Shown here: piece by piece, positions 1,804 to 10,412 of the stretch
How positions within the stretch are numbered: position 1 is the first letter of the stretch
Layout: every line of letters begins with the position of its first letter
NCBI RefSeq assembly: GCF_053078305.1
Contig: NZ_CP166879.1
DNA: 64,000 nt
Direction: 5' to 3' (one strand)
Made by a program: the position numbers and the translations under genes
The notes under the pieces: model-generated
Seen by the model: only the letters and a program-made list of their open reading frames with translations
The model's database searches: none
Told to the model about the DNA's origin: nothing

Positions 1804-1828
1804 GTATGCCTTTTTGTATGCCTTTTTT
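1804..1828. repeat. Direct repeat gtatgcctttttgtatgccttttt, distal island-end copy
   Basis: Tandem GTATGCCTTTTT x2. An identical copy lies at 10389-10412 next to int and attL. These are candidate integrase arm-type binding sites. Confidence 0.6.
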
Positions 1829-1982
1829 GAAAAAGATACCCTTGTTGTTTGATCGTCGATAACGGGTATCAATGTGCACATGCAAATCGATGGCGTTTAT
1901 GTGTGCGCTGTCGAACGTTTGAAAATGGTTTTAGGGCGGTTTTAATGCTGGTTGATGTGGCGCTCTGTGGCGCTCGTTTTGG

Positions 1983-2066
1983 TGTGCTGGTGGCGGGGGT
2001 CGAACCCGCATACATGATCAGCCTGTACAGGCTGGCACCGACTCTACCCGTTGAGCGTACACCAGC
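1983..2066 (-). pseudogene. tRNA-like element 1 with intact acceptor stem, D-arm and T-arm but an aberrant anticodon region and 3' tail
   Basis: The minus strand reads GCTGGTG-TA-CGCTCAACGGGTAGAGT...GCGGG-TTCGACC-CCCGC-CACCAGC-A. It has a perfect 7-bp acceptor pairing, a perfect 5-bp T-stem with a TTCGACC loop, and no canonical anticodon loop or CCA. Confidence 0.4.
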
Positions 2067-2087
2067 AAAAAAGCGATGAGGTTGTTG

Positions 2088-2184
2088 GCTGCTGGTGGTG
2101 GGGGTCGAACCCACATAAACATCCCGCTTTCTGGAAGCTATACAAGCGGACGCCGCTTTACCGATTAAGAGTACACCATACAGC
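2088..2184 (-). pseudogene. tRNA-like element 2, more degenerate
   Basis: It shares a T-arm (GTGGG-TTCGACC-CCCAC) and a CACCAGC acceptor 3' strand with element 1. The 5' half is interrupted. Confidence 0.3.
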
Positions 2185-2262
2185 CAGGTAAAATAGTAAT
2201 CATGCGTTATGTGCGGGTAAAGTCTGTTTCGTCTGGTAGCACCAGATGAACGGGTATCATTA

Positions 2263-2327
2263 TTTCACCTGATTTCACGTGATTTCGCTTAATTTCACAA
2301 AAATCACCTTCTTTCACCTTCTTTCAC
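2263..2327. repeat. Array of six (A/C)TTTCAC direct repeats spaced about 10 bp apart
   Basis: The sequence reads atttcacctgatttcacgtgatttcgcttaatttcacaaaaatcaccttctttcaccttctttcac. The helical-phase spacing suggests a protein-binding array, for example for Int arm-type sites, Xis or a regulator. Confidence 0.45.
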
Positions 2328-2461
2328 AAAAAACAAATCATCATTAAAGCGCCTGATTCGCTCTCTGATGCGTTTTGGTGTTTTTGTGGCGTCCGTGATG
2401 CCCTGAAAGGGGATTTTTGCGATAGCGGCGCAAATATAACGGTTGCTGCTGGTATCTGTGG

Positions 2462-2869
2462 TTAGTCTTGCGTGATTTTATTGGCGTGCTTCTTTCTCAG
2501 TCGTCGTATGATGTCGTAAATATGGGTTTCGGATATTGCGTACTCTTTGCGTAATGCCTGCAATTTTTCGCCGTTATCCCACCTGTAGTAAATCTCGTAT
2601 TCGCGCAATGCTGCGAAAAGTGATCTGCCTGTTGGAAGGTAAAGACTTCGCCCACCAGCATAGAAGGCGATTGCAGCGACAACCCGCTTTGCGATTCTGA
2701 AAGCGTCTGCCTCCTCCATGCCATTACGGGTAAGTTCCGCTACTGAATGCGACACGATATCAGCAAGCGAATCACACCATGCATCACCTGGTTTATCTCC
2801 GTTGTCTATGGCGTCGATGAATTTAAGCCGCTCGATGTCTTTTGGTACGTGATGGGTTTGCTCGTTCAT
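2462..2869 (-). CDS. Mor-family (phage Mu middle operon regulator-like) transcriptional activator
   Basis: 135-aa ORF. The GGRSLYLPTG motif and the C-terminal HTH YAISETHIYDIIRRLRKK parallel Mu Mor's GGGQVYIPRG and YGVTFNTVYKAIRRMRR. Confidence 0.55.
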   Translation of the reverse strand: MNEQTHHVPKDIERLKFIDAIDNGDKPGDAWCDSLADIVSHSVAELTRNGMEEADAFRIAKRVVAAIAFYAGGRSLYLPTGRSLFAALREYEIYYRWDNGEKLQALRKEYAISETHIYDIIRRLRKKHANKITQD

Positions 2870-2982
2870 CCGGTAGCCTCTTGCGTTGGTGTATCTGGTC
2901 CTACCAGTTTAATTTAACGTCGCAATAAAACGATATACACGCACACAATCAGAAAAGCCGTCTGACTGTTCCGGTCCCGTGC

Positions 2983-7825: not shown

Positions 7826-8029
7826 TTATTCCTGCTGATAACGCTCCTCTACTTTCTTCTCAAGCCATGATTTCACCTCATCCTCAAACCAGCCAACGCG
7901 GCGTAATCCACGCTTAAAACCAGGAATAAATTCACCAGCCTTAACCATTGTGTCAATGCTCGTTGTACTAAGGCGAAGAAGATTTGCGACTTCTCGTTTT
8001 GTAAGGATTTTCTTTTCTGTAATGTTCAT
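7826..8029 (-). CDS. alpA: AlpA-family phage regulatory protein (HTH)
   Basis: 67-aa ORF. LTKREVANLLRLSTTSIDTMVKAGEFIPGFKRG is the typical AlpA/excisionase-like HTH, a hallmark of P4-like and PICI elements. Confidence 0.8.
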   Translation of the reverse strand: MNITEKKILTKREVANLLRLSTTSIDTMVKAGEFIPGFKRGLRRVGWFEDEVKSWLEKKVEERYQQE

Positions 8030-8120
8030 ACTTTGCGTTCCTTTTGTTTCAGGCGCTAACTTGCCTAAACTTGTTCAAGGATATGCAAACACGGTAAAAG
8101 CTGGCATTGCGGAATATTAC

Positions 8121-8146
8121 GAAAAAAGCCCGTAATATTACGGGCG
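8121..8146 (-). terminator. Rho-independent terminator ending the int-orf298 transcription unit
   Basis: Perfect 18-bp palindrome gcccgtaatattacgggc, followed on the minus strand by TTTTTT. Confidence 0.65.
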
Positions 8147-8166
8147 GTCATATGTTCAGAAGTCTG

Positions 8167-9063
8167 TCAGTCGTCAACGTCTGCAAGCCACTTACCTATG
8201 CATGTTGGTGTGGCACCGATATCAACGCCTGCTTTGGTTAGTGCGCGGCTTAACTTGCTGTGACCGTTTTCAAGCGCCCTTCGTGGGTTTGACGCCTCTT
8301 CTTCTCCGGCTATAGCGGTGATTAGTCTTTTGATAACTCTGGCCTGAAGATTGGTTGTTTTCTTTGATGGGGGTGGTTTATTGATGTTTAATTCATCCAT
8401 GTTTTCAATAGAAGCGGTACGCCCTCCGTTTATGGCTAAATCTATCTCACTTCTGGAAATAAAAATATCGTTACGTGATATATCCCATCCCTGTAATAAA
8501 ATCGCAGCTTTAAAATCATCCTCGTCATCGTTATCGATTATCTGAATGTATTTAGTATTTGTTGTATCGTGAAATGATAATCTTTCAATGTCTGCGCTGT
8601 TAGCCTTTACATTAAGCAATCCATCAGCTTTAACATATATTTCTTTTGCGGGTGTTATTATTTGTGCGTTTTTTATCTCTGGCTCATCTTCAGCAAAAAT
8701 ATTCATGCTGAAATAATCACCATATGATGAGTAATGATAGTTTATGTTGAGTCCTGCATGTGCATAATAAAAAACATCTATTGGAGTGAGTAGCTTATTT
8801 ATAGATGTGGCATCAATGATTACATTGCAATATTCATTTGTGTAATGCTGGTATAATGTTTTATTAGCACTGATAAGCTCAGGCTTTACCCCTTCATAAT
8901 ACTTTAATGTCAGTTTTTCATTTATATTAATGCGATACAAAAAACGCATCCTCCTCGTAGCGATGAAATGAAGCAAATCATCAACGTCACACTCAAGCCT
9001 TCTGGCTGCCTTGTCTAACGGGTAATAATCCCTTTCAGGAAGGTTTATTTTTTTGTTTGCCAT
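8167..9063 (-). CDS. AT-rich cargo gene of unknown function (298 aa) with an N-terminal HTH-like segment
   Basis: It lies immediately downstream of int, 5 nt apart, in the same transcription unit. Its GC content is much lower than that of its neighbours. PLDKAARRLECDVDDLLHFIATRRMRF looks like an Xis/MerR-type HTH. No other recognisable domain was found. Confidence 0.5.
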   Translation of the reverse strand: MANKKINLPERDYYPLDKAARRLECDVDDLLHFIATRRMRFLYRININEKLTLKYYEGVKPELISANKTLYQHYTNEYCNVIIDATSINKLLTPIDVFYYAHAGLNINYHYSSYGDYFSMNIFAEDEPEIKNAQIITPAKEIYVKADGLLNVKANSADIERLSFHDTTNTKYIQIIDNDDEDDFKAAILLQGWDISRNDIFISRSEIDLAINGGRTASIENMDELNINKPPPSKKTTNLQARVIKRLITAIAGEEEASNPRRALENGHSKLSRALTKAGVDIGATPTCIGKWLADVDD

Positions 9064-9067
9064 GCCC

Positions 9068-10348
9068 TTAACCGTTAACCATTTTTAACCCACGATAGCC
9101 ACCCGTGGCGCTTACGCTCCCGCTGGCAGCTGCCTCTACAAAATCCCCCCACCACGCCATTAACGGGCGTCGCTGCTCGAGATAGGTTGAGCGGTTGTAC
9201 GCACGGCGAACCTCGTTTTTATCTATGTGTGACAATGCCGCCTCGATTACGTCAGAGTCAAAACCTTGCTCGTTAAGTGCGGTACTTGCTATTGAGCGCA
9301 AGCCATGAGCAACCAGCCGCCCACTAAAACCCATGCGTTTTATTGCTGCGTTTGCTGTTTGTACGCACATATGGCGCTGCGGGTCGCTGTTGTGTGGAAA
9401 TATAAACTCACGATGCCCGCTTATTGGCTTCATGACGTCCAGAATGGCTAACGCCTGCTTCGAGAGTGGTATTACGTGTTCCCTGCGTTGTTTAAGTCTG
9501 TGCTCTGGTATGCGCCATTCCTTCACCTCAAAATCAATTTCACACCAGCGCGCGCCAGCTGCTTCACCTGGTCGGCAAATTGTCAGTAGCTGCCACTCAA
9601 TGACCAGCCGCGTTTGTCGTTCCACCCGTGCCGTTGCCAGCTTCTGCATAAATTCGGGGAGTTCTTCAGGGCGTATTGCTGGCATGTTCTTAACGCTTGG
9701 CGCGTTAAATGCCTTGCTTATCTCTGATGCCGGATTCGCGGCAATCATTCCGGTATTAACGGCGTAATACATGACCTCATTGATTCGCTGTGCTGTCCTT
9801 CTGACGGTATCTAATTTCCCCTGGGCGGCTAATGGTTTTAATGCTTCGATGAAATTGCTTGCTATCAGGTCTGCTATTGGCCTGTTACCGACTGACGGGA
9901 ATACATTACGCTCCAGCGAACGCCATATATCGCGTAGTGTATCTTCTGCGAGTCCTTGCCCTTTTTTAAGTTCAAACCAGAGCGTAGCTACATGCCTGAA
10001 GGTGTTCTCTCTCTTCATCACTTCACTAAGGCGCTGTTTCTCTCTGTGCTCTTTTGGGTCAATGCCACCAGAAAGAAGCGCTCTGTATTCGTCTTTTATC
10101 TTTCGCGCGCCCGCAATGCTGATTTCTGGATATGCGCCAATGCTTAACATGGCCCGTTTTTTTGTGTGTGGCTTGTAGTAGCGGTAACGCCACAAGCAAG
10201 AGGCGCTTTTGTGCTTAATCACCAGTTCCAGCCCTTCGCCGTCAGTGATGAAAAGGTCCTTTTTTTCGTTGCTGGCTTTTCGCTGGAGGCTTTTTATCGT
10301 TGCGGGTGATAAAGACTTAACTTTTTTGGTCACCGGTTCAACTCCCAT
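9068..10348 (-). CDS. int: P4-type tyrosine integrase (site-specific recombinase)
   Basis: 426-aa ORF with an N-terminal DUF4102-like arm-binding region and the C-terminal catalytic motifs HGLRS and YLEQR..W...V. It lies adjacent to the tRNA 3' end. Confidence 0.85.
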   Translation of the reverse strand: MGVEPVTKKVKSLSPATIKSLQRKASNEKKDLFITDGEGLELVIKHKSASCLWRYRYYKPHTKKRAMLSIGAYPEISIAGARKIKDEYRALLSGGIDPKEHREKQRLSEVMKRENTFRHVATLWFELKKGQGLAEDTLRDIWRSLERNVFPSVGNRPIADLIASNFIEALKPLAAQGKLDTVRRTAQRINEVMYYAVNTGMIAANPASEISKAFNAPSVKNMPAIRPEELPEFMQKLATARVERQTRLVIEWQLLTICRPGEAAGARWCEIDFEVKEWRIPEHRLKQRREHVIPLSKQALAILDVMKPISGHREFIFPHNSDPQRHMCVQTANAAIKRMGFSGRLVAHGLRSIASTALNEQGFDSDVIEAALSHIDKNEVRRAYNRSTYLEQRRPLMAWWGDFVEAAASGSVSATGGYRGLKMVNG

Positions 10349-10388
10349 AAGCTGTTAAAGGCATATGCAAATCTGTGTTTTTTCCGGC

Positions 10389-10412
10389 GTATGCCTTTTT
10401 GTATGCCTTTTT
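10389..10412. repeat. Direct repeat gtatgcctttttgtatgccttttt, int-proximal copy
   Basis: Identical to the 1804-1828 copy, between the int start and the tRNA. Confidence 0.6.

Follow-up and report, generated by a model that had tools for sequence, protein, structure and literature searches.

Tandem 12-bp repeats at both ends of a P4-like island at the tRNA gene ileX are probable arm-type sites of its integrase

Results

Two copies of a tandem repeat in the window

The two identical 24-bp motifs near the ends of a P4-like island in E. coli DNA are very probably arm-type binding sites of the island's P4-family tyrosine integrase, Int; this reading is drawn from their sequence, position, conservation and covariation. 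The exact 24-mer, GTATGCCTTTTTGTATGCCTTTTT, has two copies, at 1804-1827 and 10389-10412, both on the + strand. The first-pass annotation had reported an identical motif in the same orientation at both island ends, and this is borne out, although the span of 1804-1828 that it gave for the left copy is one base too long. There is no other match in the window (the whole 64-kb stretch of DNA that was analysed), even when 3 mismatches are allowed, and the 12-mer unit has no additional exact copy there; 100 dinucleotide-preserving shuffles gave a mean of 0.00 matches to the 24-mer. Among complete E. coli genomes, 7 of 5,426 carry the full motif, so that the wide occurrence unrelated to int that had been named as a possible refutation is not found. 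Each carrier has it at 2 places, save one genome with 4, and in the regions inspected of two carriers (L002 and L088) it sits within the same island. The strain with 4 places is JNEC-KY203, whose 40-kb region contains just the two expected tandem pairs. A second integrase element occupies the same tRNA in JNEC-KY203.

The motif had been described as a 12-mer repeated in tandem. The tandem repeat stands, but the register chosen for it is an arbitrary one: on the int strand, conservation falls on GGCATAC and leaves out the T-run. The latter point emerged from the 80 related loci searched, none of which had the exact 12-mer, and de novo searches followed. Read on the int strand, the unit that is conserved spans about 7-10 bp, (A/T)RGGCATAC, and recurs with a 12-bp period. 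Likewise, the count of two tandem 24-mers is correct but incomplete, since a third copy of the unit, inverted and on the + strand, had been missed (Table 1).

Table 1. Coordinates of the island's attachment-site features and associated genes.
Feature	Position	Strand	Basis
Distal, degenerate core copy, TGGCCCTGCTG	1731..1741	.	empty-site alignments, four-island alignment
IHF-like site TATCAACAAAATA, one mismatch to WATCAANNNNTTR	1759..1771	-	read from sequence, putative
Distal (P'-arm) tandem pair, 2 x 12 bp, AAAAAGGCATAC AAAAAGGCATAC on int strand	1804..1827	-	exact match
AlpA-type helix-turn-helix protein, presumed recombination directionality factor (RDF)	7826..8029	-	Pfam
Two GGCAAGTT-type boxes, 28 bp upstream of alpA	8057..8074	-	
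P4-family tyrosine integrase, int	9068..10348	-	Pfam, PDB, AF2
Inverted arm-type site AAAGGCATAT	10357..10366	+	equivalent in relatives and P4
Proximal (P-arm) tandem pair, 2 x 12 bp	10389..10412	-	exact match
Two GGCCAGTT-like boxes, 10-bp period, proximal arm; candidate AlpA/RDF sites	10434..10451	-	conserved block, putative
Hairpin terminator, island-borne, between tRNA and arm sites	10458..10487	-	
Three GGCAAGTT-like boxes, 10-bp period, core to terminator; candidate AlpA/RDF sites	10497..10524	-	putative
Proximal core/crossover region, ileX 3' end, TGGTGGCCCCTGCTG on +	10532-10546		
tRNA ileX (tRNA-Ile2, anticodon CAT)	10532..10607	-	intact

Island boundaries and position of the repeats

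The island is about 8.8 kb long (about 1734-10531) and lies at the 3' end of ileX, between nfeF and mug. Empty-site alignments stop at 1733 and restart at 10529-10532, placing the junctions at 1733/1734 and 10531/10532, and in about 5,400 E. coli genomes with the empty site the tRNA 3' end is abutted by the nfeF terminator. This comparison independently confirms the boundaries proposed in the first-pass annotation. The element takes the 3' end of ileX as its core and regenerates the gene, which is intact; a displaced, degenerate copy marks the distal end, where host sequence resumes on its left. This distal copy has 4 nt fewer than the tRNA 3' end, so the present island copy may no longer excise efficiently. 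ARAGORN typed the ileX tRNA as Met; at 1976-2170 a tRNA was called by Rfam and RefSeq and none by ARAGORN.

From the empty-site comparison, both copies of the 24-mer are therefore inside the island and outside the core, in the arms at both att junctions. The distal pair is 62 bp from the core and 70 bp inside the junction; the proximal pair falls, as had been noted, between int and the tRNA; 119 bp separate it from the tRNA 3' end, and the probable int start is 55 bp downstream of it. The inverted site follows 22 bp from the proximal pair, 23 bp upstream of the int GTG start. The arm-site GGCATAC is unrelated in sequence to the core, CAGCAGGGGCCACCA. The IHF-like site lies between the distal arm sites and the core, and three relatives that also occupy ileX (Salmonella L083, E. 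coli L085 and Serratia L086) have one-mismatch matches at the equivalent position. The hairpin terminator is kept in 4/4 ileX islands.

The integrase and the layout in related loci

The int ORF starts with ATG at 10348, and its likely true start is GTG at 10333, giving a protein of 421 aa that matches RefSeq. In addition to its central and catalytic domains, this cognate integrase has a separate arm-DNA-binding domain at the N terminus. Pfam assigns PF13356 (Arm-DNA-bind_3) to residues 16-105 with E=3.5e-18, and also PF22022 and PF00589; solved arm-binding domains in the PDB are matched as well (3JU0, E=6.6e-13; 3JTZ, E=1e-4). The AF2 model of the N-domain, four strands and a helix, is confident (pLDDT 82-91).

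In the three ileX relatives, which have Ints 74-75% identical to that of the island and different replication cargo, the full layout is kept. The 7-mer core alone is conserved between proximal and distal pairs, and it reads GGTATAC in 5/5 copies in Serratia. The distal tandem pair is about 62-68 bp from the distal core in the four ileX islands (66-68 bp in the relatives), and its spacer bases diverge while the core is kept. To look in islands with related integrases had been suggested as a check, and in a wider set of 84 loci, with Ints 47-75% related, the layout recurs even though the exact 12-mer is not shared: a tandem pair at exactly 12 bp with an inverted copy is present <=220 bp upstream of int in 80, other tandem spacings are found in 1-7 loci each, and about 400 control windows yielded 3 12-bp matches. 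A distal counterpart of the pair is present within 10 kb in 11 loci at the 12-bp spacing, versus 1 locus at any other spacing; roughly 70 loci have their distal ends outside the flanks covered. Yersinia and Pectobacterium loci of the clade have the tandem-plus-inverted layout with ATTGGTATAC.

The site sequence follows an Int residue

Int and AlpA are both conserved in the four ileX islands, so the two cannot be separated there and the wider set was needed. The Int residue that tracks the site is E41, directly after DGxGL in predicted strand 40-44. In a covariation drawn from related sequences, with some residue classes being single clades, E at this position goes with AGGCA in 22/22 loci, T with AGGCCCA in 11/12 and F with GGTA(T/C)AC in 21/21. 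Q, in an LQL[LV]IK context, pairs with AGGTA, and the E-to-Q / C-to-T switch arose independently in two clades. Y is the remaining residue in the covariation.

The AlpA-type protein behaves differently. It matches PF05930 at 23 bits (cut-off 21) and HTH_17, and is 69-73% identical to its counterparts in the three ileX relatives. Between a GGTACAC locus and a GGTATAC locus AlpA is 98% identical, and GGCATA and GGTATA islands share 89-91% identity in its helix-turn-helix core, yet the whole protein is 24-40% identical among loci with the same site. In 30 of the 80 layout-bearing loci, no AlpA-like ORF was detected within 10 kb. Tandem boxes equivalent to those upstream of alpA precede it in L083, L085 and L086, and the GGCCAGTT-like boxes are confined to the proximal arm.

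Discussion

The location of the sites on both arms, a PF13356 Int, the layout in 80/84 loci, the residue covariation and the P4 annotation together support the proposal of integrase arm-type sites made in the first-pass annotation. We suggest a plausible scheme for how they would work. Each att arm would have two head-to-tail sites with a 12-bp period and the core GGCATAC (int strand), and a fifth, inverted site would lie directly upstream of int. The excised circle would thus read: tandem pair, 62 bp with the IHF-like site, a core of about 15 bp in the ileX 3' end, 119 bp, tandem pair, 22 bp, inverted site, int. Int is predicted to be heterobivalent, its N-terminal beta-sheet domain binding the arm sites and its core-binding and catalytic domains the core; DNA bending and Int would build an intasome for integration, and, with the AlpA-type factor, for excision. 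Int occupying the upstream sites would also repress int itself. Such self-repression is probable because three sites are within about 80 bp upstream of the int start; since scanning upstream of int found no sigma-70 consensus promoter, this autoregulation step rests on analogy.

Other explanations of the repeats have to be weighed. Identical direct repeats near both island ends are the usual signature of an att core, and the 24-mers might be attL/attR repeats of a duplicated integration target. We rejected them as the core on the empty-site comparison, and the idea has next to no likelihood: the junctions are 70 and 119 bp off the repeats, what is really duplicated is the tRNA 3' end, and neither L001 nor the empty site of about 5,400 E. 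coli genomes contains the 24-mer. Because both copies are within the island, 62 and 119 bp from the core, they are not a core duplication. Short AT-rich tandem repeats in a replicating element could also be replication iterons or partition sites of a satellite. This is extremely improbable, since a separate iteron cluster, TACTCACTTTTT, at 3920-4120 adjoins the RepA-type helicase, and ileX relatives with a Toprim/DUF927 replication module have the same GGCATAC sites nevertheless.

The repeats could instead be sites of the AlpA-type RDF, which would bend one arm and direct excision and/or activate int transcription. An alpA-like gene is 2.3 kb away, and CP4-57 AlpA has been reported to raise intA expression. 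The 12-bp head-to-tail arrangement fits as well, RDF sites being typically direct repeats about one helical turn apart according to the abstract of PMC7498355. We nevertheless consider this improbable, and the first-pass alternative of recombination-directionality sites finds no support, because the site covaries with the Int residue and is decoupled from AlpA, which many loci with the layout appear to lack nearby. RDF sites are also normally on one att arm, between the Int arm sites and the core, whereas the 24-mer is on both, and its period is 12 bp, not 10-11 bp. Better candidates are the GGCCAGTT-like boxes with their 10-bp period, on one arm and upstream of alpA in the four ileX islands. 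According to a further alternative, the proximal sites are a mere int operator, for Int or a repressor, with the distal copy non-functional or coincidental. The three copies upstream of int would suit an operator, and Int autorepression is documented for P4 and PAI I-536 (PMC7286903) and for KplE1 (PMC2951348). As a full account it is very improbable, given that the distal pair keeps its distance from the distal core in four islands while only its spacers diverge, shifts to GGTATAC along with the proximal copies in Serratia, and recurs in 11 loci and in P4. An operator role is compatible with the arm-site explanation, not exclusive of it.

Beyond the arm sites themselves, we tentatively propose a recognition code that could well turn out otherwise, in which bases five and six of a site of about 10 bp would be recognised by a single exposed beta-strand residue of Int, E41 in the island: E for GGCA, Q or F for GGTA, T for GGCC and Y for G(T/C)TA. 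It is put forward together with a separable system of 10-bp-period GGCCAGTT boxes, which the AlpA-type RDF would use both in the arm and at the promoter of its own gene. If the code is true, arm-site specificity would be predictable from the sequence, and single substitutions could perhaps re-engineer it; the covariation between residue and base offers a handle for a concrete, cheap experiment on this specificity.

The analysis fixes the anatomy of the attachment site: boundaries, core, five arm sites, and probable IHF and RDF sites. In 80 of the 84 loci examined, the tandem-plus-inverted layout is found at the end of the P4-family element next to int, and it could therefore help the automatic delimiting of such islands and satellites. 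The arm-site pair is a sound but ordinary finding, with an architecture long known from P4, and the biology is unsurprising because the P4 arm repeats have been annotated for decades. Those attP repeats reportedly go back to Pierson and Kahn in 1987. P4 targets the tRNA gene leuX, and the island differs from it in using ileX.

Comparison with known systems

In the P4 record X51522, 12-bp repeats at 3915-3926 (the inverted copy), 3942-3965 and 4151-4174 are labelled "attP arm sequence repeats", and the inverted, proximal and distal sites of the island match their arrangement: a tRNA-derived core is flanked on either side by a 12-bp tandem pair in int orientation, with an inverted copy where int starts. 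Gaps of 15/112/53 bp in P4 correspond to 22/119/62 bp in the island. Integrase family, N-terminal domain and a tRNA 3' end as target are common to both, and the island is also P4-like in its C4/CI-RNA immunity and Icd-like genes. They part in the site sequence, TTGGGGGCAT in P4 and (A/T)RGGCATAC in the island, and the two Ints are well under 50% identical; the top phage matches to Int, among the matches listed, reach at most 55% and do not include P4. The island has a RepA-type helicase in place of the P4 alpha primase-helicase, no sid/psu/delta genes were seen in it, and, unlike P4, it has a terminator inside the P arm.

The integrases of HPI (Yersinia; 3JTZ/3RMP) and HAI7 (Pectobacterium; 3JU0) have N-domains homologous to that of the island Int, and their arm-type binding domain is the subject of Szwagierczak et al. 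2009, as cited in PMC8138268. They have Phe at the tracking position and GGTATAC sites, whereas the island has Glu and GGCATAC. The ICEKp1 paper holds no arm-site data.

Lambda attP, with P1, P2, P'1-P'3, IHF and Xis sites, follows the same heterobivalent Int logic as proposed for the island. Its arm sites, on both arms and 50-150 bp from the core, correspond to the arm-type sites of the island, and its one-armed RDF sites and the bend site between the core and the P' sites correspond to the candidate RDF and IHF-like sites there. The lambda N-domain family is unrelated in sequence to that of the island Int; site number, spacing and orientation differ, and lambda is without a tRNA target.

The IntS/TorI module of KplE1 (CPS-53), in which int is repressed by Int and the RDF, is inserted at a tRNA and has int adjoining the att junction, as in the island (PMC2951348). 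The arm-type and RDF sites of KplE1 therefore overlap the int promoter region, as the arm-type and candidate RDF sites of the island would. KplE1 has an integrase of another lineage and other sites, with a TAAA-containing P' motif, and its binding and regulation were demonstrated experimentally (PMC2951348), whereas those proposed for the island are read from sequence.

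Results

The 24-mer GTATGCCTTTTTGTATGCCTTTTT occurs twice in the window, in the same orientation, as the first-pass annotation had reported; its left copy, there placed at 1804-1828, starts correctly but ends one base earlier. Allowing up to 3 mismatches, we found zero additional matches in the 64 kb (expected in shuffled sequence, 0.00), and its 12-mer unit has no exact copy elsewhere in the window. The annotation's count of two 24-mers stands, but it overlooked an inverted third copy, AAAGGCATAT, which is also present in the ileX relatives and in P4. Its 12-mer register proved arbitrary, because conservation, whether within an island (proximal versus distal pair) or from island to island, is confined to a core of ~7-10 bp and leaves out the A/T run.

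Coordinates of features in the island and of the corresponding sites in P4
Feature	Position	Strand	Remarks
nfeF terminator	1695-1722		bidirectional
Degenerate core copy, TGGCCCTGCTG	1731-1741		displaced; distal end
Distal 24-mer	1804-1827	+	inside island
Iteron cluster, TACTCACTTTTT	3920-4120		direct and inverted; directly downstream of RepA-type helicase gene
RepA-type helicase gene	4119-5516		
GGCCAGTT/GGCAAGTT-like boxes	8057-8074		10-bp period; 28 bp upstream of alpA
int, longest ORF	9068-10348	minus	ATG 10348; 426 aa
Inverted third copy, AAAGGCATAT	10357-10366		22 bp from proximal tandem pair; 23 bp upstream of likely int start
Proximal 24-mer	10389-10412	+	55 bp upstream of probable int start
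GGCCAGTT/GGCAAGTT-like boxes	10434-10451, 10497-10524		10-bp period; proximal arm only; both sides of island-borne terminator
Island-borne hairpin terminator	10458-10487		right after ileX; kept in four islands
tRNA ileX	10532-10607	minus	anticodon CAT
P4 inverted copy	X51522 3915-3926		at int start
P4 tandem pair	X51522 3942-3965		
P4 core	X51522 4078-4097		
P4 second tandem pair	X51522 4151-4174		

The window is E. coli sequence, and the island boundaries proposed earlier agree with our empty-site comparison. nfeF (yqjH) ends at 1677, followed by its terminator, and mug starts at 10732; in ~5,400 of 5,426 complete E. coli genomes, the match to the left flank stops at 1733 and that to the right flank starts at 10529-10532. 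Since empty sites join the nfeF terminator straight to the tRNA 3' end (gctatatc followed directly by TGGTGGCCCCTGCTGG), the island extends over ~1734-10531. As the true direct repeat we identified the tRNA 3' end. Compared with it, the distal core is 4 nt short in both E. coli islands (that of the window and L085, 9172) and 1 nt (one G) short in Salmonella (L083, 19707) and Serratia (L086, 19682). The 24-mers were ruled out as the att core: both lie inside the island, 62 bp from the distal core and 119 bp from the tRNA 3' end, respectively. Because ileX in empty sites abuts the nfeF terminator and the island brings its own hairpin, the island replaces the tRNA's terminator. In E. coli JNEC-KY203, another element (L088, 28060-40030), which encodes a tyrosine recombinase of its own, is integrated in the same ileX tRNA beside the island, making a tandem array at one tRNA.

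The rest of the element is P4-like, with an AlpA-type HTH protein, SSB, PerC, Mor, a RepA-type helicase with iterons, and three C4/CI-type antisense RNAs with Icd-like ORFs. The iteron cluster is probably the origin of replication. Three tandem copies of a 457-bp repeat at 6197-7650 make up a triplicated P4-type immunity module, in which every copy encodes a C4/CI-type antisense RNA (RF01695, 72-78 bits) and an isrK-like RNA as well as an Icd-like ORF. A 298-aa protein without a Pfam match (8167-9063) lies between int and alpA, a slot filled by a poorly conserved gene in 4/4 ileX islands (22-46% identity, partial lengths). Just inside the distal end are two tRNA-like genes (1976-2170, minus strand). 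Rfam scores 1985-2066 as tRNA at 35 bits, and the RefSeq annotation of this same island in strain OkiPb01678 includes tRNA-Tyr and tRNA-OTHER; ARAGORN detected neither gene at 1976-2170. A similar tRNA-OTHER is carried by an E. coli plasmid (H30).

The integrase probably starts at GTG 10333, giving a 421-aa product, as suggested by an upstream GGGAG (10342-10346), homologues and the matching RefSeq protein. It comprises Arm-DNA-bind_3 (PF13356, E=3.5e-18), Phage_int_M and Phage_integrase domains, and at its N-terminus it matches arm-type binding domains of known structure, those of the HAI7 integrase (3JU0, E=6.6e-13) and the HPI integrase (3JTZ, E=1e-4).

Three relatives (L083, L085 and L086), all at ileX beside mug, encode integrases 74-75% identical to that of the window and have a different replication module. 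Each carries, in int orientation, GGCATAC-N5-GGCATAC followed after ~22-25 bp by an inverted (R)TATGCC immediately upstream of int. Another tandem pair precedes the distal core by 66-68 bp, and the five copies in Serratia are all GGTATAC. We surveyed 84 loci with integrases 47-75% related, these relatives included. In 80 of them, the 220 bp upstream of int contained both an inverted copy and a tandem pair spaced at exactly 12 bp; other spacings gave 1-7 loci, and ~400 control windows gave 3 matches at 12 bp. The site sequence varies by lineage (TTAGGCCCA, TTAGGCACC, ATTGGTATAC, ATTGGTACAC, TTAGTTATAC, TTGGGACTA, TTAGTAACA and others). The same pair recurred distally at 12-bp spacing in 11 loci, against 1 at any other spacing and 1 in controls, recurrence being visible only where the element was short enough for the 10-kb flank.

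Far from being widespread and unrelated to int, the full motif is found in 7 of 5,426 E. coli genomes, at 2 places each (4 in one genome), and in both carrier regions inspected (L002 and L088) it lies inside this island. A 22-nt near-match occurs in 18 additional E. coli genomes, which presumably hold an L085-type island.

Discussion

Which protein reads these sites can be approached through covariation. E41 of the 426-aa ORF (codon ~10226-10228) directly follows a conserved DGxGL and belongs to predicted strand 40-44, part of a sheet modelled with confidence (pLDDT 82-91). Across 80 of the loci L003-L086, the residue at this position tracks the arm-site sequence: E with AGGCA (22/22 loci), T with AGGCCCA (11/12), F with GGTA(T/C)AC (21/21), Y with AG(T/C)TATAC (6/7) and Q, in an LQL[LV]IK context, with AGGTA (5 loci). 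The E-to-Q change accompanied C-to-T in the site in two independent switches, one inside the ileX clade (the window, L083 and L085 versus L086; N-domains 69-76% identical) and one between the TTAGGCACC and TTAGGTACC clades (62-67% identical mutually, 42-48% to the ileX clade). Among our findings, only this single-residue-to-base covariation across the clade may go beyond what is known. The AlpA-type protein, the presumed recombination directionality factor (RDF), showed no such tracking: a GGTACAC and a GGTATAC locus encode versions that are 98% identical, GGCATA and GGTATA islands share 89-91% identity in its HTH core, and loci with a common site have versions just 24-40% identical. Within 10 kb, it was undetected in 30 of the 80 loci. 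Better candidates for RDF sites than the 24-mers are the GGCCAGTT-like boxes, present in the proximal arm and upstream of alpA in 4/4 ileX islands; together with the GGCAAGTT-like boxes, they are likely AlpA/RDF sites that would act both at att and at the promoter. The layout, the Int N-domain, the residue covariation and the P4 annotation support the earlier proposal that the 24-mers are Int arm-type sites, members of a well-known kind, which Int would bind and which may act in recombination.

In P4 and PAI I-536, Int is reported to repress its own gene via sites overlapping the int promoter (PMC7286903), and the same is reported for KplE1 (PMC2951348). Because our search upstream of int found no consensus promoter, we only infer by analogy that Int may autorepress here. 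The P4 GenBank record, X51522, labels 12-bp repeats as "attP arm sequence repeats." Their sequence in P4 is TTGGGGGCAT, with gaps of 15/112/53 bp versus 22/119/62 bp in the window. Because this layout and these gaps correspond to those of the window, the window motif is the homologue of the arm repeats already annotated in P4's own record.
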